Assembly: GCA_031256725.1 (NCBI GenBank)
Contig: JAIRQE010000016.1
Coordinates: 1-32,000 of the forward strand
DNA length: 32,000 nucleotides
Direction: 5' to 3'
Source: Propionibacteriaceae bacterium
GTDB taxonomy: Bacteria > Actinomycetota > Actinomycetes > Propionibacteriales > Propionibacteriaceae
Numbering within the stretch: the first letter of the stretch is position 1; every line of letters begins with the position of its first letter. Of this stretch, positions 2,766-27,405 are shown one piece after another. Under the pieces are notes generated by a model. It saw only the letters and a program-made list of their open reading frames with translations. It searched no databases and was not told the DNA's origin. The translations under genes and the position numbers were made by a program.

Positions 2766-2838
2766 GCGGACGTGGCTCAGCTGGTAGAGCATCACCTTGC
2801 CAAGGTGAGGGTCGCGGGTTCGAACCCCGTCGTCCGCT
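2766..2838 (+). tRNA. tRNA-Gly (anticodon GCC)
   Basis: Hand-folded cloverleaf: acceptor GCGGACG/CGTCCGC, D stem GCTC/GAGC, anticodon stem TCACC/GGTGA with loop TTGCCAA, T arm GCGGG-TTCGAAC-CCCGT. No encoded CCA. Confidence 0.93.
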
Positions 2839-2869
2839 CGGAGAGATCCCTGAGGGGATCGCCGTTAGC

Positions 2870-2940
2870 GGTGGAGTGGCCGAGAGGCGAGGCAGCGGCC
2901 TGCAAAGCCGTGTACACGGGTTCAAATCCCGTCTCCACCT
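2870..2940 (+). tRNA. tRNA-Cys (anticodon GCA)
   Basis: Acceptor GGTGGAG/CTCCACC, anticodon stem GCGGC/GCCGT with loop CTGCAAA, T arm ACGGG-TTCAAAT-CCCGT. 71 nt. Confidence 0.9.
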
Positions 2941-2951
2941 CGAAACAGCCC

Positions 2952-3023
2952 GGGCGGCTGGCGCAGCGGTAGCGCGCTTCCCTGACACGGAAGAGGTCAC
3001 TGGTTCGATCCCAGTGTCGCCCA
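2952..3023 (+). tRNA. tRNA-Val (anticodon GAC)
   Basis: Acceptor GGGCGGC/GTCGCCC, anticodon stem CTTCC/GGAAG with loop CTGACAC, T arm CACTGG-TTCGATC-CCAGTG region. 72 nt. Confidence 0.92.
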
Positions 3024-3031
3024 CGATTGAG

Positions 3032-3057
3032 GTGAATGAGTGCTTGCACTCATTCAC
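3032..3057 (+). other. perfect 12-2-12 inverted repeat (GTGAATGAGTGC tt GCACTCATTCAC) in the spacer between the two tRNA-Val genes
   Basis: Read directly from the sequence. No U-tract follows, so it is not a canonical terminator. It may be a processing or structural hairpin. Confidence 0.6.
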
Positions 3058-3068
3058 GAGGCTTGTGA

Positions 3069-3140
3069 GGGCGTATGGCGCAGCGGTAGCGCGCTTCGTT
3101 CACACCGAAGAGGTCACTGGTTCAAACCCAGTTACGCCCA
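3069..3140 (+). tRNA. tRNA-Val (anticodon CAC)
   Basis: Acceptor GGGCGTA/TACGCCC, anticodon stem CTTCG/CGAAG with loop TTCACAC, T arm with TTCAAAC loop. It is a near-duplicate of the Val-GAC gene. Confidence 0.92.
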
Positions 3141-3284: not shown

Positions 3285-4469
3285 TTATCTGTACGCCTTC
3301 TCTACTGCTTGGATGATGTCGGCAATGAGATCCTCGGGATCTTCTAGGCCGATAGCTAGGCGTACAAGCTTGTCAGGGGCAGGATTAGTCGTGGAAGCCA
3401 TGGAGGCGTGGGTCATCGCGTAGGGGTACTCAATCAGTGACTCTGCGGCGCCGAGGGATGCTGCCAGTCTCAAGAGTTGGGTGCTTTCGGAGACCTTGCG
3501 GGCGAGTTCGGGGGAGTCCAACTCGAAGGAGATGACCCCACCAAATCCGCTCATCTGTCGGGCGGCAATGTCGTGCCCGGGGTGGGTGGGCAAACCTGGG
3601 TACCAAACCTGTGAGATCTGCGGTACCTCGGTGAGGGCTTCGGCGACTCTCTGGGCGGTAGCTGCGGATCTTTGTACCCGGACAACAAGGGTACGAAGGC
3701 CCCGATGAGCCAGCCAAGAATCGAAGGCTCCTGGTACTGAGCCAATTGCGTTCTGCCACCAACGGACCTCGTGGAGGACATCATCAGAGCCACTGAGGCC
3801 ATCATCGGGAAGGTGGAGGTCTGGTGCGAAGATGGCAGCACCTCCAACGTGATCAGAGTGGCCACCGATGTACTTTGTCGTCGAATGGATGACAATATCA
3901 GCACCCAATTCGATGGGCCGTTGGAAGACGGGGGTTGCGAAGGTGTTGTCAACGACAACCCATGCTCCGTACTCGTGGGCGACTGTGGAGAGGGCCTCGA
4001 TATCTGATAATTCTAGGAGGGGGTTGGAGGGGGTTTCGAGCCAGAGGACGCGAGCGTGGGTCTCCTCGAAGGCGGTGCGTACCTCATCCAAGTTCGCCAT
4101 GGAAACCCGATGGGTAGACCTACCTTCTCTCGGCAAAATCCAAGTAAACATCCGCCCTGTACCAGCGTACACATCATGCCCGCAAAGAATCGTGTCCCCA
4201 GGGCGGGTGAGGACGCGCACTAGGGTGTCCTCGGCATTTAGCCCTGAGGGAAAGGCGACGGCTCCAGCCCCAGATTCGAGGCTAGCTAAGGCTTCCTGGT
4301 AGCGGTCCCTCGTCGGATTTCCTGAGCGGGAGTAGTTGTACCGATCTGGTGCTCCTTCAATACCGTCGAGTTGAAAGGTTGATGCAAGAACAATGGGTGG
4401 TACAACGGCCCCGGTGAGGGGATCACTGGCTTGGCCGACTTGCACGGCTCGTGTCGAAAATCCTGGCAT
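3285..4469 (-). CDS. metB: PLP-dependent cystathionine gamma-synthase / gamma-lyase family enzyme (Cys/Met metabolism)
   Basis: 394-aa ORF with the Cys/Met-metabolism PLP family pattern, including the PLP-lysine block HSTTKYIGGHSD. Sequence alone cannot separate gamma-synthase from gamma-lyase activity. Confidence 0.88.
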   Translation of the reverse strand: MPGFSTRAVQVGQASDPLTGAVVPPIVLASTFQLDGIEGAPDRYNYSRSGNPTRDRYQEALASLESGAGAVAFPSGLNAEDTLVRVLTRPGDTILCGHDVYAGTGRMFTWILPREGRSTHRVSMANLDEVRTAFEETHARVLWLETPSNPLLELSDIEALSTVAHEYGAWVVVDNTFATPVFQRPIELGADIVIHSTTKYIGGHSDHVGGAAIFAPDLHLPDDGLSGSDDVLHEVRWWQNAIGSVPGAFDSWLAHRGLRTLVVRVQRSAATAQRVAEALTEVPQISQVWYPGLPTHPGHDIAARQMSGFGGVISFELDSPELARKVSESTQLLRLAASLGAAESLIEYPYAMTHASMASTTNPAPDKLVRLAIGLEDPEDLIADIIQAVEKAYR

Positions 4470-4696: not shown

Positions 4697-4778
4697 AAAT
4701 AGACTTTTTTGGTGAACTATGAGTAATGTAATGCCCCAGCTGGGAAAGCCAGTTGTTTCGCAATAGCTAGGAGGAGTC

Positions 4779-4826
4779 ATGGCCACAACCATGGTGAACA
4801 CCTTCTGCTGTTGTATGTGTATGTGA
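4779..4826 (+). CDS. candidate Cys/Met-rich leader peptide MATTMVNTFCCCMCM
   Basis: 15 codons plus TGA, preceded by AGGAGGAG (4769-4776). The last six codons are C C C M C M. It lies 145 nt upstream of the first gene of the methyltransferase/ABC operon. Confidence 0.6.
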   Translation: MATTMVNTFCCCMCM

Positions 4827-4900
4827 CGCGCTAGCTATTCAGAGCTAGGGGATGGTCCGATTCTGGGCTGTCTTGGTGAATGAGCCCGCGTCATTTTCTG
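4823..4900 (+). terminator. candidate attenuator: alternative pairings ending in a T-rich tract
   Basis: TGACGCG (4824-4830, containing the mini-ORF stop codon) is complementary to CGCGTCA (4887-4893). The same 3' segment can instead form the local hairpin AATGA-gcccgcg-TCATT (4879-4895). Both are followed by TTTTCTGTTG. A nested hairpin CTAGCT-attcag-AGCTAG sits at 4831-4848. Confidence 0.4.
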
Positions 4901-4971
4901 TTGTCATCCAACACATCCTCCCCGTTATTCTCGGGGAAAATATCACAATCATACAACAATAGGAGTTTATT

Positions 4972-5994
4972 ATGTCCACACGTCTGGAAACCTTCCAGAA
5001 CATCATCAACGGCCAAGGCGAAGGGTACCTCACCGCTGCCTGGAAGCATTTCGTTGGCGAGGAGTACGACCGTGCCCGCTTCGTCAAAGCACATGTCGAC
5101 TTCGTCCAGCAATGGGATTGGGACTGGGTCAAGATCAACCCACGAGCCAATTATTATGCAGAAACATGGGGTGCAAGTTACGACCCCACCAACTATGACA
5201 TCATGGTCCCAACCCTCGTTGAGGCTGCGATCACGAAGCCAAGCGATCTGTCCAAGATCGTCCCACTCAAGGCTCAGGACAACCCGATTCTTCGTGAAGA
5301 AATCGCCAGAGCCCGAGAAATCAAGCAGGCTTTCCCCGATCGTGCAGTGATCCAATCGGTCTTCTCGCCACTGGGTGTACTGCTCTTCTTGGCAGACATC
5401 CATCCCTTCCCGCCAGGTCCAGGTAGGGAAGCCAACGGCCCAGTCTCACTGACAGACCTGTTGGACACTGATCGAGCATTGACCCTCAAGGCTCTCGAAG
5501 CCATCACCGAGACCCTCAAGGACTATGTCATCGAACTATTGAAGCCAGTCGAAGAAGGTGGAGCCGGTCTCGACGGGATCTTCTATGCCGTCCTCGGATT
5601 ACCGTCAAAGAGCTTCATCCCCAAGGACAAGTTCGACCAGTTGTCCACCCCATTCGACTTGGGTGTCCTTGAAGCCGCCAAGGGTTCAGCTGTGGTCTTC
5701 CACACATGTTCAATGGACTCTCATCCTGATTGGTTCACTCAGTGGCCATTGAGTGCATTGCAATGGGATCAATTCCTTGACGGAAACCCCGATATTACAA
5801 CCGATCTGGGTGTGATCCCGGTGGGTGGACCCGAGGCTCGCCTGTTTGAAGAAGGGCAAGACCTTGACCTTCTCCAAGAGCAGTTGGCCCGTACCCTCGA
5901 ACAGCGTCAGGGCAAGCCGTTCCTGCTCGCTTCAAGCTGCTCTTTGCCGCTGCATACATCCGATGAAGCCCTCGAGATCCTCAGCAAAGCCTGA
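4972..5994 (+). CDS. uroporphyrinogen-decarboxylase-fold (MtaA/MtbA/CmuA-like) putative zinc-dependent thiol methyltransferase
   Basis: 340-aa ORF with AGGAG 6-7 nt upstream. The overall length and pattern fit the URO-D family. It carries His244-x-Cys246-x76-Cys323 (FHTCS ... ASSCSLP), the H-x-C-xn-C zinc-thiolate signature of corrinoid:thiol methyltransferases and MetE-like enzymes. Confidence 0.55.
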   Translation: MSTRLETFQNIINGQGEGYLTAAWKHFVGEEYDRARFVKAHVDFVQQWDWDWVKINPRANYYAETWGASYDPTNYDIMVPTLVEAAITKPSDLSKIVPLKAQDNPILREEIARAREIKQAFPDRAVIQSVFSPLGVLLFLADIHPFPPGPGREANGPVSLTDLLDTDRALTLKALEAITETLKDYVIELLKPVEEGGAGLDGIFYAVLGLPSKSFIPKDKFDQLSTPFDLGVLEAAKGSAVVFHTCSMDSHPDWFTQWPLSALQWDQFLDGNPDITTDLGVIPVGGPEARLFEEGQDLDLLQEQLARTLEQRQGKPFLLASSCSLPLHTSDEALEILSKA

Positions 5995-6014: not shown

Positions 6015-7166
6015 ATGAAAAAGAAAACACTCGCATCCCTTGTTATAGGTTTGGCCTTTGCTCTGAGCGCCTGCGCAGGACAGGGCGATCAGACGCAGAC
6101 AACTGACCAGGCCCAAGACTCTCCAGTGACCTTTGGGGTGATCTATCCTAAGACTGGTTCCTATGCAGAATATGGCCGTCTGTTCGAACAGGGTCTAGAA
6201 CTCGCAGTGGAGAAGGTGAACACTGATGGTGGAATCCATGGTCGCGACCTGAAACTGAAGTACTTTGATACTCAGTCCGATCCGAAGCAAGCAGCAGCGG
6301 TCGCGCCCAAACTCGTTGTTGATCCAGAGATTATCGTCGTCCTTGGTGACTATTCTTCTTCCTCATCGAAGGCGGCCTCACCAGCATTCCAGCAGGCGGG
6401 TTTGGTTCACTACGGATTCAACAACTCGGCCACAGACTTCCCGTCAACTGGTGACCATGTGTGGTCCCCGAGTTTTGGTACAGACTCCCTGATGCCAGTA
6501 TGGGCAGACGCTATCGCTGATACTGGCGCGAAGACAGTTTCGGTGATCTATATCGAAAATGACTGGGGTTTGCAGGCCTACGATTATTTCGCAGACCACA
6601 TCAAGACTCTTGGAGTCGAGATCGTCTACACCTCAGCCTACCCTGCGACACCAACTGATGATTATTCACCCATCCTCATCAAGGCTCGCGATGCCAAGGC
6701 GGATGCGATCGTACAGATTGGTTATGCCGAAGGTGCTCAGATTGTCAACACCCTTCGTGACACTCTCGGCTATAAAGGTCCCTTCTATGGTGGTCAGAGG
6801 ACTCCAGAGTTCTTGGATATCGCAGGCAAGAATGCTGAAGGATCGATCCTGAATGGACACTTCTCGAACGAAACAACTGTGCCTAGGGTTCAGGAGTTCT
6901 TGGCTGACTTCCGTGCAGCTTATGGAGTGGATCCGGGTGACTTCAATCTTTCTGCTTACCAGGCGGTGATTGACCTTGCCTATGGGATCAATAAGACTTC
7001 TCCCACTCGTGAGGGAGTGCAAGAAGCCCTACAAACAGTGACCGATTTTCCTGCCTATATTGGTCAGGCCGACACCTTCGCTTTCGATCAGGAAACCCGT
7101 CGACTCCTTGATCCGAAGCCCGGGCTTGTCATCGTTGAAGATGGCGAATTCAAACCATACAACTGA
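6015..7166 (+). CDS. ABC transporter substrate-binding lipoprotein, LivK/branched-chain-amino-acid (Peripla_BP_6) family
   Basis: 383 aa. The signal peptide has the lipobox LSAC (MKKKTLASLVIGLAFALSAC). The type I periplasmic-binding-protein pattern is present (FGVIYPKTGSYAEYG..., GDYSSSSS). Confidence 0.85.
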   Translation: MKKKTLASLVIGLAFALSACAGQGDQTQTTDQAQDSPVTFGVIYPKTGSYAEYGRLFEQGLELAVEKVNTDGGIHGRDLKLKYFDTQSDPKQAAAVAPKLVVDPEIIVVLGDYSSSSSKAASPAFQQAGLVHYGFNNSATDFPSTGDHVWSPSFGTDSLMPVWADAIADTGAKTVSVIYIENDWGLQAYDYFADHIKTLGVEIVYTSAYPATPTDDYSPILIKARDAKADAIVQIGYAEGAQIVNTLRDTLGYKGPFYGGQRTPEFLDIAGKNAEGSILNGHFSNETTVPRVQEFLADFRAAYGVDPGDFNLSAYQAVIDLAYGINKTSPTREGVQEALQTVTDFPAYIGQADTFAFDQETRRLLDPKPGLVIVEDGEFKPYN

Positions 7167-7268: not shown

Positions 7269-9125
7269 ATGATTGACACACTTATTGCCGGACTCCTTCA
7301 CGGAAACATCTACGCTCTCATCGCCGTGGGGATGTCCCTGATTTTCGGCGTGACACACGTCGCCAACTTTGCTCATGGGTCCATCTTCGCCATTGGTACC
7401 ATGCTGGGTTGGTTCCTGGGAGCCCAATTGGGATGGGGGATCATCCCAACTCTTGCAGCTGTCATCGTCATCACATCACTGCTTGGCTGGATCATTTCTG
7501 TACTCGTCGTAGGCCCCCTCGCACAGGGTCCACCGATCGCTGCCCTTCTAGCCACGATAGCTGTGGCGATGATCCTCGACGCACTCTCCCAGGTGATTTT
7601 CACTCCCGTGACACGCAAATTCCCCGAATTGCTTCCCACTCACAATCTTCAACTCGGTGGAGTCCACTTTGGTACTTCCTCTGTCGTCATGCTCATCGTC
7701 ACAATAGTCTCCATGGCTGCCCTGTGGGCCTTCCTTCGTTTCGGGAAGCTAGGTCAGGCTATTCGTGCAACGGCCCAAGACTCGGATTCGGCCAAGCAGG
7801 TCGGGATTCCGGTCGAAAGGATTCGCCACCTCTCCTTCATCATCGCTTCCGGCCTTGGGGGTATGGCTGGGATCTTCATGGGATTGTTCAACTCAACGAT
7901 CAATCCTTCCACTGGTGCCATCGCTGGCCTGACCGCATTCGTGGCAGCAACAATTGGTGGATTGGGATCCATGCCCGGTGCTGTCCTTGGTGGGCTCCTT
8001 CTTGGAGTAACGGAAGCCTTTGGTGTGTACTTCCTAGGCGGCTCCTATCGTGACATCATCATCTTTGGTGCTCTGGTTCTCATCCTCCTTCTGCGTCCAG
8101 CCGGGTTGGTTGGCAAGAAACTGGCAATTGAAACAGAGCCTATGACTCGTACCTTCCTTGGAGGTACACGCCCAATCCAGTTGCCATGGTTCGGCAACCT
8201 GGCTCTCATCGCTGGCCTAGCATTCATCCCGATCCTCTTTGGCCCTCAAATGGGCTCAGTTATCGCTGGTGTTGGTACCCAGGTTTTCGCGTACGCCATC
8301 GCAGCAATCGGGTTAACCATCATTGCTGGAGGTACAGGCCAGATTATTCTCGGCCAAGCTGGTGCAGTGGCTATGGGCGCCTATGGTTCAGCACTCCTAT
8401 CGGTTCACTATGGGTGGCCCTTCCTTGTCACCATCATTGCTGGGGCACTGATCGCTGCTGTGATCTGTTCGATTTTGATCTTCCCAGCATGGAAACTTTC
8501 AGGTCATTACGTGGCTATTGCCACGATTGGTGTGGGTTTCATCACAGTGGCCTTACTCAAGGTTTTAGAGCCCATCACCCGTGGTGTCAACGGAGTCTAT
8601 GGGATTCCTTATCCGGCAATCTTCGGTCTGCAGATCACCGATATTCGGGGGATCTACTGGGTGAATCTGGTTCTGATGGGGATTACCCTATTGCTCGTCA
8701 CAAAGATCATGGCCTCCCATCTCGGGAAGACTATTTCATCGATTGGTGCCGATCCGGTTGCGGCTGCATCCTTGGGTATCCGTGTCACTGGGTACAAGGG
8801 GTTGGCTTATGCCATCTCCGCATTCTTTGCAGGTCTTGCGGGGGCTCTGCTAGCCCATCAGTACACCTACATTGAGCCAGGTCAGTTCGATTTGAATATG
8901 TCAACAGTACTTCTGGCGATCATCGTGTTGGGTGGATTGCGTTCACCATTGGGTGCTGTCCTGGGGGCGATCATACTTCTGGGGGTACCAGAATTACTGA
9001 GAACCATCTTTGAAGACATCACCTGGTTTGTCTCCATCTTCCCCCATGCGCGCATCATCGTCTATGGACTGACCCTTATCCTCATCATCCGCTTCCGCCC
9101 GCAGGGCCTCTTCCAAAGGAGCTAG
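7269..9125 (+). CDS. fused LivH-LivM type ABC permease (branched-chain amino acid transporter family)
   Basis: 618-aa polytopic membrane ORF. The first ~290 aa are LivH-like and the remainder is LivM-like, in a single continuous frame. Confidence 0.85.
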   Translation: MIDTLIAGLLHGNIYALIAVGMSLIFGVTHVANFAHGSIFAIGTMLGWFLGAQLGWGIIPTLAAVIVITSLLGWIISVLVVGPLAQGPPIAALLATIAVAMILDALSQVIFTPVTRKFPELLPTHNLQLGGVHFGTSSVVMLIVTIVSMAALWAFLRFGKLGQAIRATAQDSDSAKQVGIPVERIRHLSFIIASGLGGMAGIFMGLFNSTINPSTGAIAGLTAFVAATIGGLGSMPGAVLGGLLLGVTEAFGVYFLGGSYRDIIIFGALVLILLLRPAGLVGKKLAIETEPMTRTFLGGTRPIQLPWFGNLALIAGLAFIPILFGPQMGSVIAGVGTQVFAYAIAAIGLTIIAGGTGQIILGQAGAVAMGAYGSALLSVHYGWPFLVTIIAGALIAAVICSILIFPAWKLSGHYVAIATIGVGFITVALLKVLEPITRGVNGVYGIPYPAIFGLQITDIRGIYWVNLVLMGITLLLVTKIMASHLGKTISSIGADPVAAASLGIRVTGYKGLAYAISAFFAGLAGALLAHQYTYIEPGQFDLNMSTVLLAIIVLGGLRSPLGAVLGAIILLGVPELLRTIFEDITWFVSIFPHARIIVYGLTLILIIRFRPQGLFQRS

Positions 9126-9127
9126 TC

Positions 9128-10744
9128 ATGACCATGAACCAATACGAAGTATCTGCTCTGACAGTCACCCAACTCAGCAAGAGTTTCGGGTCCCTGAAAG
9201 CTGTTGACGACGTTTCTTTTGTGATCCAACCCGGTGAGGTGGTCTCCATCATCGGTCCTAATGGATCAGGGAAAACCACTCTCATCAACCTCATCTCAGG
9301 GCTTCTGCAACCCGATTCGGGAGCCATTGTCTTTGCAGGTCAGGATCTCACACGAGCCAATCAGGTGGGTGTGTGTGAAGCGGGCATAGGTCGTACCTTC
9401 CAAAATGGACGAGTCTTTGCAAGCATGACTGTCGATGACAACGTCGAACTTGGGCTACACAGCAAGCTGACAGCGAACCGTCCGGGTAAAAGGTTCTCCA
9501 GATTCCCTGTAGGTAACTGGGTCAACCTTCTCGCCGAGGCGGCTGTGTCCTTGATTCCCTCACCTCAAGCGAAGAAGGAGTTGGCCAAAGCTCAGGGCAA
9601 GATTGACGAGCAAATTGCCCGATTCAAGACTCGTCTCGAACCTCGACGCAACCACCTTGCGTATACACTCTCCTATGCGAACAGGCGACGTACGGAAATT
9701 GCGCGAGCCCTCGTCGCCCAGCCCAAGCTTCTCCTTCTTGATGAGCCCACCGCTGGGATGAATCAGGCCGAAACCAAGGAGGTGTTACGCCAGCTTCTCG
9801 AACTGAAGCAAGAAGGACAGTCCATGCTCCTGGTTGAGCATAAGATCGATTTGGTGTTGACCCTCTCCGATCGGGTGATCGTCATGGACTCTGGCAAGAA
9901 GATCGCTGAAGGCAAGCCCGATAGCTTGCATGAAAATCCGGTCGTCATGGAAGCCTACCTGGGTACGCGCCGTGAGGCGATCACTGTACGACCACCGCGT
10001 CCCGCTAGTGATGAACCGCTCCTTGAACTGGACAATGTCAACATCTTTTATGGGCTAGTACAAGCCCTCACCGATGTGTCGCTTACAGTAGGCAAGGGAG
10101 AAATTGTCTCCCTTCTTGGAGGAAATGCTTCAGGAAAGTCGACAACCATGAAGACAATTCTTGGTTTGCTTGAGCCCAAGACTGGCACAGTCACATTCCA
10201 GGGGAATAATCTCACGACCGCGAGTACAGCCGCCCGGGTTCGAGCGGGGATGGCATCTGTACCCGAGGCTCGACGGATCTTCCCAGAGATGACTGTTTAC
10301 GAGAACCTCATGTCGGGGGCCTATACCCGCATGGATCGACAAGGTATTCGTGAGGATCTCGACAGGGTCTTCGAGTATTTCCCCCGCCTGTGGGAGAGGA
10401 AAAACCAGGATGCTGGAACCCTCTCAGGAGGGGAACAGCAGATGCTGGCCTTTGGTCGAGCCCTGATGACGAACCCCGTACTCATCTGCATGGATGAACC
10501 CACAATGGGTTTGGCCCCCAAACTCGTCGAACAGGTACTAGAGCAGATAGCCCACCTGAGAAATGAACTTGGTGTCTCAGTTCTCATGGTTGAGCAACAA
10601 GCAGAGTTGGCGCTGTCCATCGCCGACCGTGGCTATGTTCTCAACCAAGGGGAGATCACCCTTCAAGGATCTGCCCAGACACTCCTGGATGATCCCGGAC
10701 TTAAGGAGGCTTACTTTGGTCGCCAACCCGAGTACAACATCTAG
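9128..10744 (+). CDS. fused LivG-LivF type ABC ATPase (two nucleotide-binding domains)
   Basis: 538 aa. NBD1 has Walker A GPNGSGKTT, signature LSYANRRR and Walker B LLLLDEP. NBD2 has GGNASGKST, LSGGEQQML and LICMDEP. Confidence 0.9.
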   Translation: MTMNQYEVSALTVTQLSKSFGSLKAVDDVSFVIQPGEVVSIIGPNGSGKTTLINLISGLLQPDSGAIVFAGQDLTRANQVGVCEAGIGRTFQNGRVFASMTVDDNVELGLHSKLTANRPGKRFSRFPVGNWVNLLAEAAVSLIPSPQAKKELAKAQGKIDEQIARFKTRLEPRRNHLAYTLSYANRRRTEIARALVAQPKLLLLDEPTAGMNQAETKEVLRQLLELKQEGQSMLLVEHKIDLVLTLSDRVIVMDSGKKIAEGKPDSLHENPVVMEAYLGTRREAITVRPPRPASDEPLLELDNVNIFYGLVQALTDVSLTVGKGEIVSLLGGNASGKSTTMKTILGLLEPKTGTVTFQGNNLTTASTAARVRAGMASVPEARRIFPEMTVYENLMSGAYTRMDRQGIREDLDRVFEYFPRLWERKNQDAGTLSGGEQQMLAFGRALMTNPVLICMDEPTMGLAPKLVEQVLEQIAHLRNELGVSVLMVEQQAELALSIADRGYVLNQGEITLQGSAQTLLDDPGLKEAYFGRQPEYNI

Positions 10745-23452: not shown

Positions 23453-26038
23453 TCATAATCTGGGATCCACTGGTTCGCTTTCTAGGGCTAGGACACCGAA
23501 GATGCATTCGTGTACTCGATGAAGGGGGTCGCCGTTGACGAAACGATCCAGGGATTCCATGCCGAGTGCGAACTCTTGAAGTGCAAGTCGACGCTTTGTG
23601 GACAGGGAGCGTTTCTTCAAGCGGGGGAGGTTTTCCTTGAGAAGGTACTCTGGGCCGTAGATAATGCGCAGGTATTCCCGGCCTCGGCATTTAACTGCGG
23701 GCTGGATGGGTGCTGAATCGCCATGACCAATAAAGTCGAGGGGTTTGACCACCATCCCCTCACCACCGGAAGCAGTGAGATCCTGCCACCACTGGATTGC
23801 GGTCATCGTACTCTTCTCATCTGAAAGGTCCACAAGAAGGTGGTCAGTCGCCATGAAGATGGGGTCGATGCCAGTCATGTGTTTGGCAATGGTTTCCATG
23901 TGCCACAGATGGTTTCGATCCGAGTACACATGCCCCTCGGTTGCAAGAATATGGAAGGGAGCGATGCGATAATCCTCGATGCTTGTGACCTCCCAGCAGT
24001 ACCTCCGATAGGCTTCAGCATAGTGGTCTAGGGCCTCGGCGCGAGCCTGATACCTCTCGGCTAGAGCCGCAAGATCAAGGGTCTTCTTTTCTTGGTTTGG
24101 CCGTGCCAACGTGTCGTCCAGACAAGCGGATTCAAGCTTGTCCGTGAGTACAGCACAAGCACTTGTGATCGCAGCAACCCCAGCAGCTAAACCTACACTC
24201 CCAGCGCGACTCACGGGAGCGAATTGTTCGCGGAGAAGACCCTGAGCCTTGGCTGACCAGGGCATGAGTTCTGCATCCAAACAAACCCAATCTGTGGAGT
24301 ACTCATCCCAGAATCCTGTTCTGGTGAGGACATCATCAAGGCTTGTCAACAGGGTTGTCTCAGTATCATCCTCAAAGAAACGCCGACCTGTGCGTGTGTA
24401 GATGATTCCACGGGTACCATCAGCAATCCTGAATCGACGTTGAGCCACACTCTCATCTCGACACAGGATGATCACAGCACGTGACCCCATGTGTTTGCGC
24501 TCACAAACAACCTGGGTCACACCACGCTTGCGGTAGTACTCGAAGGCTTGCGAGGGATCTTCCAAATAATCATCAAGGGTACTCGTCTCGCAGGGGGACA
24601 TCGTTGGTGGCAGATAGATCAACCATCTGGGATCTGCAGCAAAACGACTCATAACCTCAAGGGCAGCAGCTGAGTTCTCTGCGTTGATCTTGATGGATTT
24701 GCGTAGGGTCGTTGACAGGAATCTCTGCCCCAAAACATCATCCACATTCAATAGATCCCCGCTGGTCGTGGGTGGATGCAGTGGTTTGATGAGTGTGTAA
24801 TACTCCCGAGCCGCCTCAATCTGTACGACTTCTTTTTCAGGGTAACGAAACCCTGTCAGCTTTCCACCAAAGACGCAACCGGTATCAATGCAGACAGTAT
24901 TGTTGATCATTTCGATCTCGGGGGTGGGCACATGCCCATAGACGACGAGGGCTGAACCACGGTAATCATTCGCCCAAGGCAGACGTACAGGCAGGCCATA
25001 CTCATCAGTCTCACCAGTGGTGTCTCCGTACAAACAGAAACTGCGAACTCGCCCAGAACTGCGCCCGTGGTACTTCTCAATCAGCCCAGCATGGGCGACA
25101 ACCAACCTGCCACCGTCGAAGACGTAATGACTGATCAAACCATCCAGGAAACTCTCGACCTCTGTACGAAATTGGCTGGTTTCCGCATCCAACTGAGCCA
25201 TGGTGATGTCGATCCCATGGGTCATGTTTGTGAGTCCGCGACGCAAGATCCGAACGAGTTTCGCATCATGATTGCCAGCCACACAGTACGCTGCACCCGA
25301 GTTGACCATGGACATCACAAGACGCAGGACATCGGTGTTCTTGGGACCGCGATCACAGAGGTCACCAACGAAGATCGCTCGCCGCCCCGATGGGGGAGTA
25401 GCCTGATGATTCTCCTTGTCAACCGCATATCCCATGGTGTCCAAGAGTGAGCACAACTCATCGTAGCAACCGTGTACGTCTCCGATGATGTCGAAGGGTC
25501 CAGTCTCATCTTTCTTGTCATTCCACAGCCGAGTACGATGGATCTCCACGTGAGCGATCTCATCCTCACTGTTCAGAACATGAACATAGCGAAACCCCTC
25601 CTTCTTCAAGGTTTTGAGGGTATGACGCAACTGCTCCATCTGACGGTGGATCACCTTCGCAGGGAAACTCCGATCGCTACGCTGGGCATGGCGCTCCACG
25701 CAGGTGGCTTCCGGCAGGTTGAGTACGATGGCGACCGCGTGAACATTCTGCTCCTTGGCGAGATTGAGCACAGCTGCCCGAGCATCCTTGTGGATATTTG
25801 TGGCATCGATCACAGTCAACAGCCCCAGATCCAGTCGCTTATTGGCGACGTAATACAGGGTGTCGAAGGCTTGGCGGGTCACCTTCTCGTTGTTCTCATC
25901 ATCAGAAACCATGGCTCTAAAGAAATCCGAAGAGAGGATTTCAGTTGGTTTGAAGTGGCGCTGAGCGAAGGTAGATTTCCCCGAGGATGACACTCCAACC
26001 ACGGCAACGACTGCGAGTTCAGGAATCTCTATGCGCAT
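23453..26038 (-). CDS. pnkp: polynucleotide kinase-phosphatase with ligase-like domain (bacterial RNA repair Pnkp)
   Basis: 861 aa in three modules. The N-terminal kinase has P-loop GVSSSGKST. The metallophosphatase has GDVHGC, GDLCDRGP and GNHD. The C-terminal nucleotidyltransferase has the ERKHMGSRAV lysine motif. GGAGG lies 4 nt before the ATG. The start overlaps the hen1 stop by 10 nt. Confidence 0.92.
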   Translation of the reverse strand: MRIEIPELAVVAVVGVSSSGKSTFAQRHFKPTEILSSDFFRAMVSDDENNEKVTRQAFDTLYYVANKRLDLGLLTVIDATNIHKDARAAVLNLAKEQNVHAVAIVLNLPEATCVERHAQRSDRSFPAKVIHRQMEQLRHTLKTLKKEGFRYVHVLNSEDEIAHVEIHRTRLWNDKKDETGPFDIIGDVHGCYDELCSLLDTMGYAVDKENHQATPPSGRRAIFVGDLCDRGPKNTDVLRLVMSMVNSGAAYCVAGNHDAKLVRILRRGLTNMTHGIDITMAQLDAETSQFRTEVESFLDGLISHYVFDGGRLVVAHAGLIEKYHGRSSGRVRSFCLYGDTTGETDEYGLPVRLPWANDYRGSALVVYGHVPTPEIEMINNTVCIDTGCVFGGKLTGFRYPEKEVVQIEAAREYYTLIKPLHPPTTSGDLLNVDDVLGQRFLSTTLRKSIKINAENSAAALEVMSRFAADPRWLIYLPPTMSPCETSTLDDYLEDPSQAFEYYRKRGVTQVVCERKHMGSRAVIILCRDESVAQRRFRIADGTRGIIYTRTGRRFFEDDTETTLLTSLDDVLTRTGFWDEYSTDWVCLDAELMPWSAKAQGLLREQFAPVSRAGSVGLAAGVAAITSACAVLTDKLESACLDDTLARPNQEKKTLDLAALAERYQARAEALDHYAEAYRRYCWEVTSIEDYRIAPFHILATEGHVYSDRNHLWHMETIAKHMTGIDPIFMATDHLLVDLSDEKSTMTAIQWWQDLTASGGEGMVVKPLDFIGHGDSAPIQPAVKCRGREYLRIIYGPEYLLKENLPRLKKRSLSTKRRLALQEFALGMESLDRFVNGDPLHRVHECIFGVLALESEPVDPRL

Positions 26039-27405
26039 GTCACCTCCAGGTTCCCATCACTGGTGAAAACCCCCATCTGTGTGGGGGTACCACAGGTTTC
26101 GTCCTCATCCCCAACACCAAGGAATGCCACTGTGTACCCATAGCGCTGGGCAGTTGTATGAGCCCATTCTTGGAACTCTGCGCGGGTCCACTCGAAACGA
26201 TGGTCCTCATGTCGATGCCCCGATTCGACTCCATAGATTTCGTTGTATTCACTATTGGGGGTTGTCACCACGATAGTGCGCGGCCTCGCGTATTCAAAGA
26301 GTACCCGTTCGAAGGCTGCCAAACGACCCAGATCAAGATGCTCAATGACTTCAACAACACATGCAGTGTCGTACCCAGAAAAGCGCGCATCCCTATAGGT
26401 GAGGGATCCTTGGATGAGGGTGATTCGGGACTGCATTGATTCGCTGGCATCGGTGAGCATTAGACGCTCAGAGCTTTTTTCGAGGGCATGGTGTGCTACA
26501 TCAACCCCAGTGATCTTCGTGAACTGACTATCTTTGACAAGGAGTTTTAGGAGGTTTCCTTCGCCACAACCTAGATCAATCACAGTGGAGGCACCACTAG
26601 CTTTGACCTGGTTGAGTACTGCTTGGAGTCGTACTTCGTTGAGACGGGGAGGCTTTTCGGGTGCCTCAGTGGGGATGAGATCCCCATCGTTTGCACTCAT
26701 GGCAGCCAGTTGCTCGAACGCCTGGTTGACAAGTCGTCGCTGACGTTTGAGATAGCGATCTGTGATGTACTGTTTCATCGGATGGTCAGCCAGCCAGCCC
26801 TCACCCATTCTCAACAGTTTGTCGACCTCTTCAGAATCCACCCAATAGTGTTTGTGGGCATCAAAGACCGGCATCAAAACATAGAGATGCTTGAGGAGGT
26901 CTCGCAGGCGTACCTCTCCTGTGATGGTGAGGTTAACATATGAAGCCTGCCCCCATTGGTGGAATTGATCATCAAGGGTGAAACTCTCCCATTCGACCTC
27001 ATAACCCAAGGGTTCGAAGACTGCTGACAGATTCTGGTGGTTTCCCCGACAGGGAAGCATCGTGACCGTGGCGGAAAGGTTCAACCTAGAATCGGCCAAC
27101 TCCTGATGGAAGTCGCCTCGACCGGTCATGGCTGTACCAAAGGCTTTCGTGAGCGCTGTACTCATGAGGGAGGAAGAAACATAGGGGCGGTCGTTGACAT
27201 AGTCGTAGCCTGATCTCTTGGAGAGTCCGATAGGGTCAACATCCAGCAGTAGTGCCACTGTGGTACGTTCACGCGAGACCTCAGGATAGAAGACATAGGC
27301 TTTCCCAAAACTGAGTTCCACCACCTGAGGGCGTGCCGGATTCTTAAACAGGAGGTACCCAAGTTCGGTCGTATTCTGTCCCAGATAGGTGATGGTCAAC
27401 AGCAC
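26029..27405 (-). CDS. hen1: 3'-terminal RNA ribose 2'-O-methyltransferase Hen1 (bacterial RNA repair partner of Pnkp)
   Basis: 458 aa. The N-terminus MLLTITYLGQNTTELGYLLFKNP is the characteristic bacterial Hen1 N-domain. The C-terminal SAM methyltransferase has VIDLGCGEGNLL. GTG start. No SD is present, but TAAGCT (plus coordinates 27412-27417) lies 6 nt upstream. Confidence 0.9.
   Translation of the reverse strand: MLLTITYLGQNTTELGYLLFKNPARPQVVELSFGKAYVFYPEVSRERTTVALLLDVDPIGLSKRSGYDYVNDRPYVSSSLMSTALTKAFGTAMTGRGDFHQELADSRLNLSATVTMLPCRGNHQNLSAVFEPLGYEVEWESFTLDDQFHQWGQASYVNLTITGEVRLRDLLKHLYVLMPVFDAHKHYWVDSEEVDKLLRMGEGWLADHPMKQYITDRYLKRQRRLVNQAFEQLAAMSANDGDLIPTEAPEKPPRLNEVRLQAVLNQVKASGASTVIDLGCGEGNLLKLLVKDSQFTKITGVDVAHHALEKSSERLMLTDASESMQSRITLIQGSLTYRDARFSGYDTACVVEVIEHLDLGRLAAFERVLFEYARPRTIVVTTPNSEYNEIYGVESGHRHEDHRFEWTRAEFQEWAHTTAQRYGYTVAFLGVGDEDETCGTPTQMGVFTSDGNLEVTCA

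Follow-up and report, generated by a model that had tools for sequence, protein, structure and literature searches.

A putative zinc-thiolate enzyme of the uroporphyrinogen decarboxylase fold, linked to an amino-acid-type importer and a Cys/Met-rich leader in Actinobacteria

The window analysed here is a stretch of 32,000 nucleotides (positions 1 to 32,000 of contig JAIRQE010000016.1) from the metagenome-assembled genome (MAG) of a Propionibacteriaceae bacterium. On its forward strand it carries an open reading frame (ORF) for a protein of 340 amino acids (4972..5994, plus strand), as the initial annotation of the sequence had read it and as ORF calling and translation confirmed. The gene opens an operon that continues with a complete amino-acid-type ABC importer, and it is preceded by a short leader ORF rich in cysteine and methionine codons and by a structured spacer; a divergent gene for a sulfur amino-acid enzyme lies upstream. 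No signal peptide is present in the protein, which is accordingly predicted to be cytoplasmic, and its translation, AlphaFold2 model, profile matches and alignment place it in the lineage of MtaA-like zinc methyltransferases, on the fold of uroporphyrinogen decarboxylase (URO-D). We propose, with a probability of roughly 0.55, that it is a zinc-thiolate S-alkyl transferase that would serve the importer-coupled salvage of sulfur amino acids and would do so without a dedicated corrinoid protein.

The URO-D fold is assigned on the strength of structure prediction and of relatives, the protein's own match to PF01208 being sub-threshold (19.4 bits, E 5.8e-4, for a gathering score of 23.9 bits). An NCBIfam scan returned no model matching the window protein, HemE included. 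Relatives at 22-36% identity score 56-139 bits with PF01208; at the Pfam level, and as judged from sequence, membership of the URO-D superfamily holds only transitively. The AlphaFold2 model, for which 24 orthologues served as input, has a pLDDT of 95 and a pTM of 0.93. When it was compared with the PDB using Foldseek, the top match was MtaA from Methanosarcina mazei (4AY8/4AY7; E 1.5e-12, TM score 0.77, 15-16% identity), followed by HemE structures (TM score 0.66-0.76), with MetE far behind (TM score about 0.5). E-values to the MtaA and HemE structures ranged from 1e-12 to 1e-8 and reflect the full-length URO-D TIM barrel. The fold that the initial annotation had named is thus borne out by the model, by its structural neighbours and by the PF01208 scores of relatives. 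A weak Foldseek match was also obtained to subunit epsilon of acetophenone carboxylase (9fou_B, TM score 0.54-0.59). Longer homologues were checked for domain fusions and none was found.

At the sequence level, neither a single-sequence search (phmmer) nor a narrow orthologue profile (A1) matched any PDB entry, and only a broad family profile built from 30 diverse members (A2) bridged to MtaA. Profile A2 retrieved MtaA (4AY7) with an E-value of 1.7e-23 (86 bits) and the best HemE with 7e-12; the zinc-free chloromethane methyltransferase CdmB followed at 5e-3, and MetE structures were marginal (E about 0.19-0.4). A comparison with true decarboxylases, which the initial annotation had proposed, hence favours MtaA. 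These searches indicate that the window protein belongs to the MtaA-like lineage, very distantly, its 15-16% identity to MtaA lying under the >25% criterion used for MtaA-like proteins. Membership of the MetE family was rejected, as there was no PF01717 match, the TM score was about 0.5 and the profile E-value was 0.19 or worse.

The putative metal site is formed by three residues, His244 and Cys246 (codons of His244-Thr245-Cys246, 5701..5709, plus strand; His244 CAC 5701-5703, Cys246 TGT 5707-5709) and Cys323 (TGC, 5938..5940, plus strand), each picked out by conservation and by alignment to MtaA. The codons agree with the H-x-C-x76-C motif reported initially, with 76 residues between the cysteines, and Cys246 and Cys323 are the sole cysteines of the protein. 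Asp266 (5767..5769, plus strand), selected on the same grounds, is a candidate for a fourth, exchangeable carboxylate ligand. We aligned 266 homologues of at least 300 residues to the family hidden Markov model (120 close homologues and 146 representatives of the wider family). The HxC..D..C pattern occurs in 120 of the 120 close homologues, and none of the three putative ligands varies among orthologues, a point on which the initial reading of the motif had been made to depend. In the wider family His244 and Cys323 are retained in 142 of 146 representatives, while position 246 is Cys in 125 and His in 18; Asp266, invariant in all 120 close homologues, is Asp in 63 of the 146. A correlated swap to HxH..H..C, in which Cys246 and Asp266 both become His, was found in 15 of the 146 wider-family members and, from sequence comparison, would be typical of the change expected of a remodelled metal site. 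This subgroup (within P0121-P0269) suggests a harder metal site, perhaps for another substrate atom or metal.

Across the 24 orthologues, the invariant positions comprise His244, Cys246, Cys323, W24, H26, the WDWDWVKINPRA block, E64, D229 and W265-D266, among others. In the AlphaFold2 model, His244/Cys246, Asp266 and Cys323 lie at or just after the C-terminal ends of strands 240-245, 262-264 and 317-320, respectively, and it is at the C-terminal strand ends that TIM-barrel active sites lie. The model therefore suggests that His244, Cys246, Asp266 and Cys323 may together form one site.

The alignment of profile A2 with MtaA sets the family consensus 'lHvCg' on 'LHICGN' of MtaA and 'lapgCvi' on 'LAPGCGI'. 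The MtaA counterparts, in the numbering of the 4AY7 chain, are His246, Cys248 and Cys325, likewise spaced by 76 residues (alignment count), and the Asp266 column holds a Glu of MtaA (Glu269 in the same numbering). HemE reads ILYASG and LGHGI at the motif columns and thus has none of the ligands, in agreement with the earlier statement that true HemE lacks the motif. In the S- and Se-methyltransferases of the UroD superfamily the zinc sphere is His-Cys-Cys, whereas in O-methyltransferases carboxylates replace Cys (PMC10418091, Kountz and Balskus 2023). The ligand set of MT2-A is that of MetE, whose zinc activates homocysteine, and UROD is a metal-free structural relative (PMC539065, Pejchal and Ludwig). 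The initial interpretation of the motif as an MtaA-type zinc site, present in related form in MetE, is supported because of the alignment to MtaA and this literature on the His-Cys-Cys sphere (PMC10418091, PMC539065).

We found no partner that would supply a corrinoid. Pfam scans of every large ORF of the window detected no B12-binding domain, in keeping with the initial remark that no corrinoid protein is encoded there; the large ORFs are housekeeping genes only (argG, hisE/hisG, the metB-like gene, dnaE, hrcA, dnaJ, rsmE, tgt, a Pnkp-Hen1 pair, phoH, ybeY, era and others). Nor was a gene for a corrinoid protein or an activase present in any domain-annotated related locus, a set that covers Bifidobacterium, Raineyella, Alloscardovia, a Bacillaceae MAG, a Cellulomonas MAG and several unassigned contigs. 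Bifidobacteriaceae are not known to synthesise cobamides or to have cobamide enzymes. In MtaA-like clusters, genes for the corrinoid protein and the Ram/RACE activase are core parts (PMC10418091). From gene content, the URO-D-like family may be corrinoid independent.

Immediately downstream of the gene lies a complete importer of the HAAT (LIV-type) family, composed of a Peripla_BP_6 lipoprotein, a BPD_transp_2 permease and LivG/LivF ATPases. The gene for the substrate-binding lipoprotein (6015..7166, plus strand; Pfam Peripla_BP_6, E 4e-51; lipobox LSAC at residues 17-20) begins 21 nt past the URO-D-like gene and is followed by a fused LivH-LivM-type permease of 618 residues (7269..9125, plus strand; Pfam BPD_transp_2 in two stretches, E 3e-73; LivH-like and LivM-like halves in NCBIfam) and by a fused LivG-LivF-type double ATPase of 538 residues, which ends the operon (9128..10744, plus strand; Pfam ABC_tran twice plus BCA_ABC_TP_C; LivF-like and LivG-like in NCBIfam). 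The closest solved relatives of the binding protein are amino-acid-binding HAAT proteins, and the presumed residues of E. coli LivJ for the alpha-groups of the ligand (Tyr18, Ser79, Thr102, here as Ser, and Tyr202) are conserved in a BLASTP alignment, which is no more than a lead. Among 66 related loci, which hold 68 URO-D-like genes, a HAAT binding protein is encoded no more than 700 nt downstream in 57 of the 68 cases; for one further gene the contig ends too early to judge. The LivH/LivM permease fusion is kept in nearly all related loci, and the LivG/LivF ATPases are fused in the window and in Bifidobacteriaceae and split in other Propionibacteriales (Raineyella, Propionicimonas and MAGs).

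Coupling to transport extends to importers of other families. A member from a Bacillaceae MAG (36% identity) sits within a metN(NIL)-metI-X-metQ(NlpA) cluster (L071 5295-8861), and a Bifidobacterium aquikefiri paralogue ends a polar-amino-acid operon of the SBP_bac_3/BPD_transp_1/ABC_tran type, which is followed by LysR and PatB-like C-S lyase genes (L033 6423-12610). Distant family members occur in Opp/Dpp-type or MFS clusters together with amidohydrolases, M20 peptidase, hydantoinase A/B, or LLM monooxygenase and AhpD/CMD proteins. Four unrelated ABC importer families have therefore been recruited (HAAT, MetNIQ, polar-amino-acid and Opp/Dpp), with MFS clusters among the distant members. Because four importer families are associated with one enzyme family, the enzyme is likely to act on something imported, and the link to an imported substrate suggested by the initial annotation is strengthened. 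In the Bacillaceae MAG locus (L071), metN and metI look frameshifted or fragmented in the assembly. A second paralogue away from the LIV-type importer is present in several Bifidobacterium genomes (L033; also L013, L022, L023, L043, L050, L060, L066 and L067).

Upstream of the operon, the leader ORF MATTMVNTFCCCMCM (4779..4826, plus strand), identified by direct reading and preceded by an AGGAGG Shine-Dalgarno sequence, has 15 codons, of which 4 specify Cys and 3 are internal Met codons; it presumably encodes a Cys/Met-sensing attenuator peptide. Its presence had been noted initially and holds. The spacer between the leader and the first gene (4827..4971, plus strand) is predicted by RNA folding to be structured and is a candidate attenuator: the region 4750-4975 folds at -75.5 kcal/mol (z = -3.5 relative to shuffles), with a long-range stem in which the leader stop-codon region UGACGCG pairs with CGCGUCA, followed by the U-rich UUUUCUGUUG. 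A scan for consensus terminators and promoters around the leader found no canonical terminator and nothing else. At gathering thresholds, Rfam returned no riboswitch or T-box and only tRNAs (window and 2 of 11 related loci scanned), and regulation by a known RNA family was rejected on these grounds.

Cys/Met-rich leader ORFs occupy the same position in at least 14 related loci from three lineages, the carriers being Raineyella, Propionicimonas, several Propionibacteriales MAGs, four Alloscardovia loci and Bifidobacterium mongoliense. The Raineyella leader reads ...AAMPRCCCRCRHCMPSVS, those of Propionicimonas and Propionibacteriales MAGs ...MSRRCCPCQRCMSSVN, ...CRCCACRCCMSSAI and ...MCRCCRCQRCMSSAN, and those of Alloscardovia ...SMMMRAFVCCCQSR, ...MMRCEMCCRMCCCMCR and ...QMMRCCMCCCLAR. 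In seven Propionibacteriales loci the leader ORF is the best-conserved intergenic DNA and is followed, past its stop codon, by hairpins of differing sequence. The ORF is shared by Propionibacteriales and Alloscardovia (window 4779-4971; L004 7644-7741; L006 7630-7710; L009 355-456; L012 8489-8584; L024 2382-2486; L025 2396-2497), and in Propionibacteriales conservation extends beyond the Cys and Met codons to the whole peptide, MSRSxSGxSHRTMRA...CRCCxCxxCMxSxN, and to its DNA. The mixture of Cys and Met regulatory codons looks like that of a dual-signal attenuator. A precedent in Actinobacteria is provided by the mycobacterial polycysteine leader ORFs, which are likewise short, contain Cys runs and are reported to act as cysteine-responsive attenuators ahead of sulfur-metabolism genes (bioRxiv 10.1101/834739). 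Compared with those leaders, the one in the window has interspersed Met codons and a Shine-Dalgarno sequence and is not leaderless, and its presumed target is an operon for an importer and a URO-D-like enzyme.

The neighbourhood points to the same area of metabolism. Divergently from the operon, the window encodes a metB-like pyridoxal phosphate-dependent enzyme of the cystathionine gamma-synthase/lyase family (3285..4469, minus strand; Pfam Cys_Met_Meta_PP, E 3e-122), whose best NCBIfam match is PRK07811, cystathionine gamma-synthase, with 474 bits for a cut-off of 513. Genes for MetY-like O-acetylhomoserine sulfhydrylases, for cystathionine gamma-lyase/synthase-like (CGL/CGS-like) proteins or for PatB-like C-S lyases lie no more than 9 kb away in 41 of the 66 loci. 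Bee-gut bifidobacteria have the MetY-like gene directly 3' of the ATPase gene, and in the Bifidobacterium tibiigranuli group a LysR gene is followed by the PatB-like gene, the URO-D-like gene and the importer. Homocysteine and cysteine are products or substrates of the MetY-, CGL/CGS- and PatB-like enzymes and, as judged from the annotated genes, the context of the close clade is uniformly that of sulfur amino-acid metabolism. Two independent lines, leader regulation and neighbouring genes, thus support the link to sulfur amino acids. According to published work, bifidobacteria have no sulfate assimilation and no cysE and rely on reduced sulfur in organic form (PMC7817509).

How such an enzyme might work can be outlined from these elements, with zinc binding, methyl transfer, corrinoid independence and the identity of the thiol and the donor inferred. 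Because the gene is the first of an operon behind a leader of Cys and Met codons, expression would be expected under a shortage of charged tRNA-Cys or tRNA-Met. A sulfur or methyl compound resembling an amino acid would then enter through the LIV-type importer and be turned by the enzyme into a usable sulfur amino acid. At the active site, His244, Cys246 and Cys323, probably together with the exchangeable Asp266, would hold Zn2+ where three adjacent strands of the barrel reach their C-terminal ends, and the metal would bind and activate the substrate sulfur for S-methyl (alkyl) transfer. As for the specific reaction, our tentative preference, to which we give clearly less weight than to the general proposal, is that methionine arises by attack of the homocysteine thiolate on a methyl group that an imported, chemically activated onium compound, such as S-methylmethionine, donates. 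We favour it because it would need neither corrinoid nor folate, by analogy with the chemistry of MmuM and BHMT, and because the neighbouring enzymes supply homocysteine. A donor resembling S-methylmethionine is preferred because a methionine-like cationic amino acid would fit binding proteins of the MetQ, polar and LIV types and, more circumstantially, because the hosts live on plant-derived material.

The system closest to the window protein is MtaA (MT2-A), the methylcobalamin:coenzyme M methyltransferase of Methanosarcina, whose relatives include MtbA, MtsA and MtpA. Fold (TM score 0.77) and length are common to both, the H-x-C...C motif aligns column by column with an unchanged 76-residue spacing, a carboxylate follows about 20 residues past the first Cys, and Zn2+ would presumably activate the substrate sulfur for methyl transfer in either case. 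In contrast to MtaA, the window family is only 15-16% identical to it, has no co-encoded corrinoid protein or activase, is partnered with an amino-acid ABC importer behind a Cys/Met leader, and belongs to non-methanogenic, largely fermentative Actinobacteria, in which coenzyme M is unlikely to be the thiol. The nearest published concept is that of the corrinoid-dependent mlp clusters (PMC10418091). In the Type 1 clusters, bacterial homologues of MtaA have a His-Cys-Cys zinc sphere, which the putative site of the window family resembles; they often lie beside methionine or cysteine genes and have been proposed to salvage methyl-sulfur or methyl-selenium compounds (PMC10418091). However, Mlps are defined by >25% identity to a characterised coenzyme M methyltransferase and by core genes for a corrinoid protein and Ram/RACE (PMC10418091), and the window family has neither. 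What is new here is a putative zinc-thiolate methyltransferase scaffold partnered with an ABC importer, without a corrinoid protein and under a new regulatory arrangement.

MetE and core-MetE (PF01717) share a related barrel, and the zinc site of MetE, His-x-Cys...carboxylate...Cys, activates homocysteine (PMC539065); by comparison, the window protein is a single barrel that lacks the folate-binding N-terminal barrel and has Asp rather than Glu as candidate fourth ligand. Core-MetE is reported to use methylcobalamin (PMC7005905). With MmuM/YagD and BHMT (PF02574) the likeness is a mechanistic analogy only, namely the proposed attack of a homocysteine zinc-thiolate on an onium donor without corrinoid or folate; these enzymes form an unrelated sequence family with a Cys3 zinc site, and the window protein has no PF02574 match. 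MmuM is itself paired with an importer, MmuP.

Several observations weigh against a corrinoid-independent methyltransferase that forms methionine. MtaA, the closest relative with a characterised function, depends strictly on a corrinoid; cobamide production is common in Propionibacteriaceae, and a corrinoid protein may be encoded elsewhere in the genome of the window MAG. Most Bifidobacterium loci have no leader ORF. Where leaders are present, Cys codons exceed Met codons, which fits a reaction that yields cysteine at least as well as the synthesis of methionine. Finally, methyl transfer is not the obvious reading of the amidohydrolase, M20 peptidase, hydantoinase A/B and LLM monooxygenase-AhpD/CMD genes that accompany distant members, and the chemistry of the family may be broader.

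We therefore weighed four alternatives, which we rank as a thioether demethylase, a corrinoid-dependent MT2 enzyme, an enzyme of different chemistry and HemE, in this order. The Cys bias of the leaders, which implies a product that should relieve a shortage of cysteine, speaks for a demethylase or S-dealkylase: imported S-methylcysteine or methionine would lose its zinc-bound sulfur as cysteine or homocysteine, with the methyl group going to a second thiol (S-methylcysteine and homocysteine giving cysteine and methionine) or to another acceptor. The PatB-like C-S lyase, M20 amidohydrolase and CGL-like genes found nearby are consistent with it, such sets resembling the S-alkylcysteine salvage genes of Bacillus; so are the relative embedded in a methionine-type metNIQ operon and those probably translationally coupled to LLM monooxygenases, which are common in organosulfur salvage. 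The reported lack of sulfate assimilation and cysE in operon-carrying bifidobacteria (PMC7817509) also speaks for it. The difficulty is chemical, in that a thiolate takes the methyl group of an unactivated thioether only slowly when no Co(I) supernucleophile is involved, the conversion of methionine to homocysteine with a folate acceptor is thermodynamically uphill, and no acceptor-handling gene is apparent in the operon. No enzymatic precedent is known for such a transfer. On balance we regard a demethylase as rather unlikely, although it is the strongest of the four.

A conventional MT2-type methylcobamide:thiol methyltransferase, fed by a corrinoid protein or free methylcobamide encoded elsewhere, would account for corrinoid-dependent MtaA being the top match of both profile and structure, and for D51, K54 and E64, (near-)invariant in the family, aligning with Glu, Arg and Glu of MtaA. 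MtaA also accepts free methylcobalamin, and cobamide production is typical of Propionibacteriaceae. We nevertheless consider this explanation improbable, since the family has its widest distribution in Bifidobacteriaceae, which are not known to make cobamides, identity to MtaA does not exceed 15-16%, and no member examined is adjoined by a B12-binding protein or a corrinoid reductive activase, which are core in MtaA-like clusters (PMC10418091). Similarly doubtful is a URO-D-fold enzyme that uses zinc or another metal for decarboxylation, hydrolysis or another thiol alkylation of an imported amino-acid derivative. Wider members do cluster with Amidohydro_1/2, M20, hydantoinase A/B, serine dehydratase, and LLM monooxygenase plus AhpD/CMD genes, and the low-TM Foldseek match to the acetophenone carboxylase epsilon subunit could be read in this way; the superfamily includes chemistry other than methyl transfer, as in the decarboxylation by HemE and in epoxyalkane:coenzyme M transferase. 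However, the uniform sulfur amino-acid context of the close clade argues against it, and a soft His-Cys-Cys sphere is tied to sulfur or selenium alkyl transfer in this superfamily (PMC10418091). The database names, in turn, would make the protein a genuine HemE, and the fold is indeed common to both (TM score 0.66-0.76), HemE being the source of that name. HemE is a metal-free enzyme of the haem pathway (PMC539065), a pathway without a counterpart in this context: Pfam scans of the large ORFs found no haem genes in the window, and the operon pairs the gene with a transporter and a Cys/Met leader. Given also the sub-threshold Pfam score and the lack of an NCBIfam HemE match, this identity has almost nothing to recommend it, and it was rejected because HemE has no counterpart ligands and the profile favours MtaA by eleven orders of magnitude.

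Should the zinc-thiolate transferase proposal be correct, its implications would be considerable for a group of enzymes whose characterised MtaA-like URO-D members all depend on a corrinoid protein: the importer-partnered clade would represent a new route of thiol methyl transfer and join the few enzymes that give methionine or cysteine without B12. Were corrinoid independence and the reaction both borne out, this would be a new class of methionine- or cysteine-forming enzymes. In a speculative extension, which we think could be right but would not bet on, the whole family would be a class of corrinoid- and folate-independent thiol S-methyltransferases on the MtaA/URO-D scaffold, using either an importer-delivered donor (S-methylmethionine) or a methyl shuttle from S-methylcysteine to homocysteine. 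Such a shuttle, if true, would let one imported molecule yield both cysteine and methionine, and would explain how cysteine-auxotrophic bifidobacteria and the actinobacteria of termite and bee guts live on plant-derived organosulfur compounds. The question bears on the sulfur amino-acid supply of bifidobacteria and related gut actinobacteria. A defined function would also fix many genome annotations and metabolic models, the label 'uroporphyrinogen decarboxylase' being applied even where the haem pathway is absent.

Orthologues at 40-72% identity fall into two groups, Propionibacteriales (Raineyella, Propionicimonas and many MAGs) and Bifidobacteriaceae (Bifidobacterium from bee, rodent, primate and kefir sources, Alloscardovia, Galliscardovia and Pseudoscardovia), the family being most widespread in the latter. 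Complete genomes with the gene include those of Alloscardovia omnicolens (CP159991.1), Bifidobacterium asteroides (NZ_CP181447.1) and Raineyella (CP137079.1). All of them are named 'uroporphyrinogen decarboxylase (family protein)' in databases, and the entry identical to the window protein, from a Propionibacteriaceae MAG, is named hypothetical protein. Literature searches aimed at the URO-D-like family found no study of it. An exhaustive profile search of 1.84 billion cluster representatives matched 1,318 clusters (50% identity) at E <= 1e-3, 135 of them at E <= 1e-30; because of this number of matches, we regard the actinobacterial clade as one section of a larger family, as yet unnamed, whose proteins have about 330 residues. 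Contigs binned as Senegalimassilia, Dysosmobacter, Acidaminococcaceae or 'bacterium' (L035, L041, L042 and L062) carry a Bifidobacterium-like whole operon, which probably reflects mis-binned contigs, not horizontal transfer.

Some of the distant relatives lie in arrangements of their own. One is encoded directly 3' of hydantoinase A/B genes (L075/L076 1949-7035), and the core subunits of acetophenone carboxylase are hydantoinase-family proteins, which may be a sign that certain URO-D-like proteins work together with ATP-dependent hydantoinase/carboxylase enzymes. Others are linked to the uncharacterised NCBIfam neighbourhood of TIGR04027 (LLM monooxygenase) and TIGR04028 (binding protein) (L085 372-5767; L086 1-7017; L087 6001-13020). 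In L085 and L086 the LLM gene overlaps the URO-D-like gene, so that the two are probably translationally coupled, while in the Cellulomonas locus L087 the LLM gene, TIGR04029 (CMD) and TIGR04030 (AhpD-like) are convergent towards the URO-D-like gene. Elsewhere in the window, four clustered tRNA genes separate hisG from the metB-like gene (2766-3140), and a bacterial Pnkp-Hen1 RNA repair pair, consisting of a polynucleotide kinase-phosphatase/ligase and a Hen1 methyltransferase, is encoded on the minus strand at 23453-27405.

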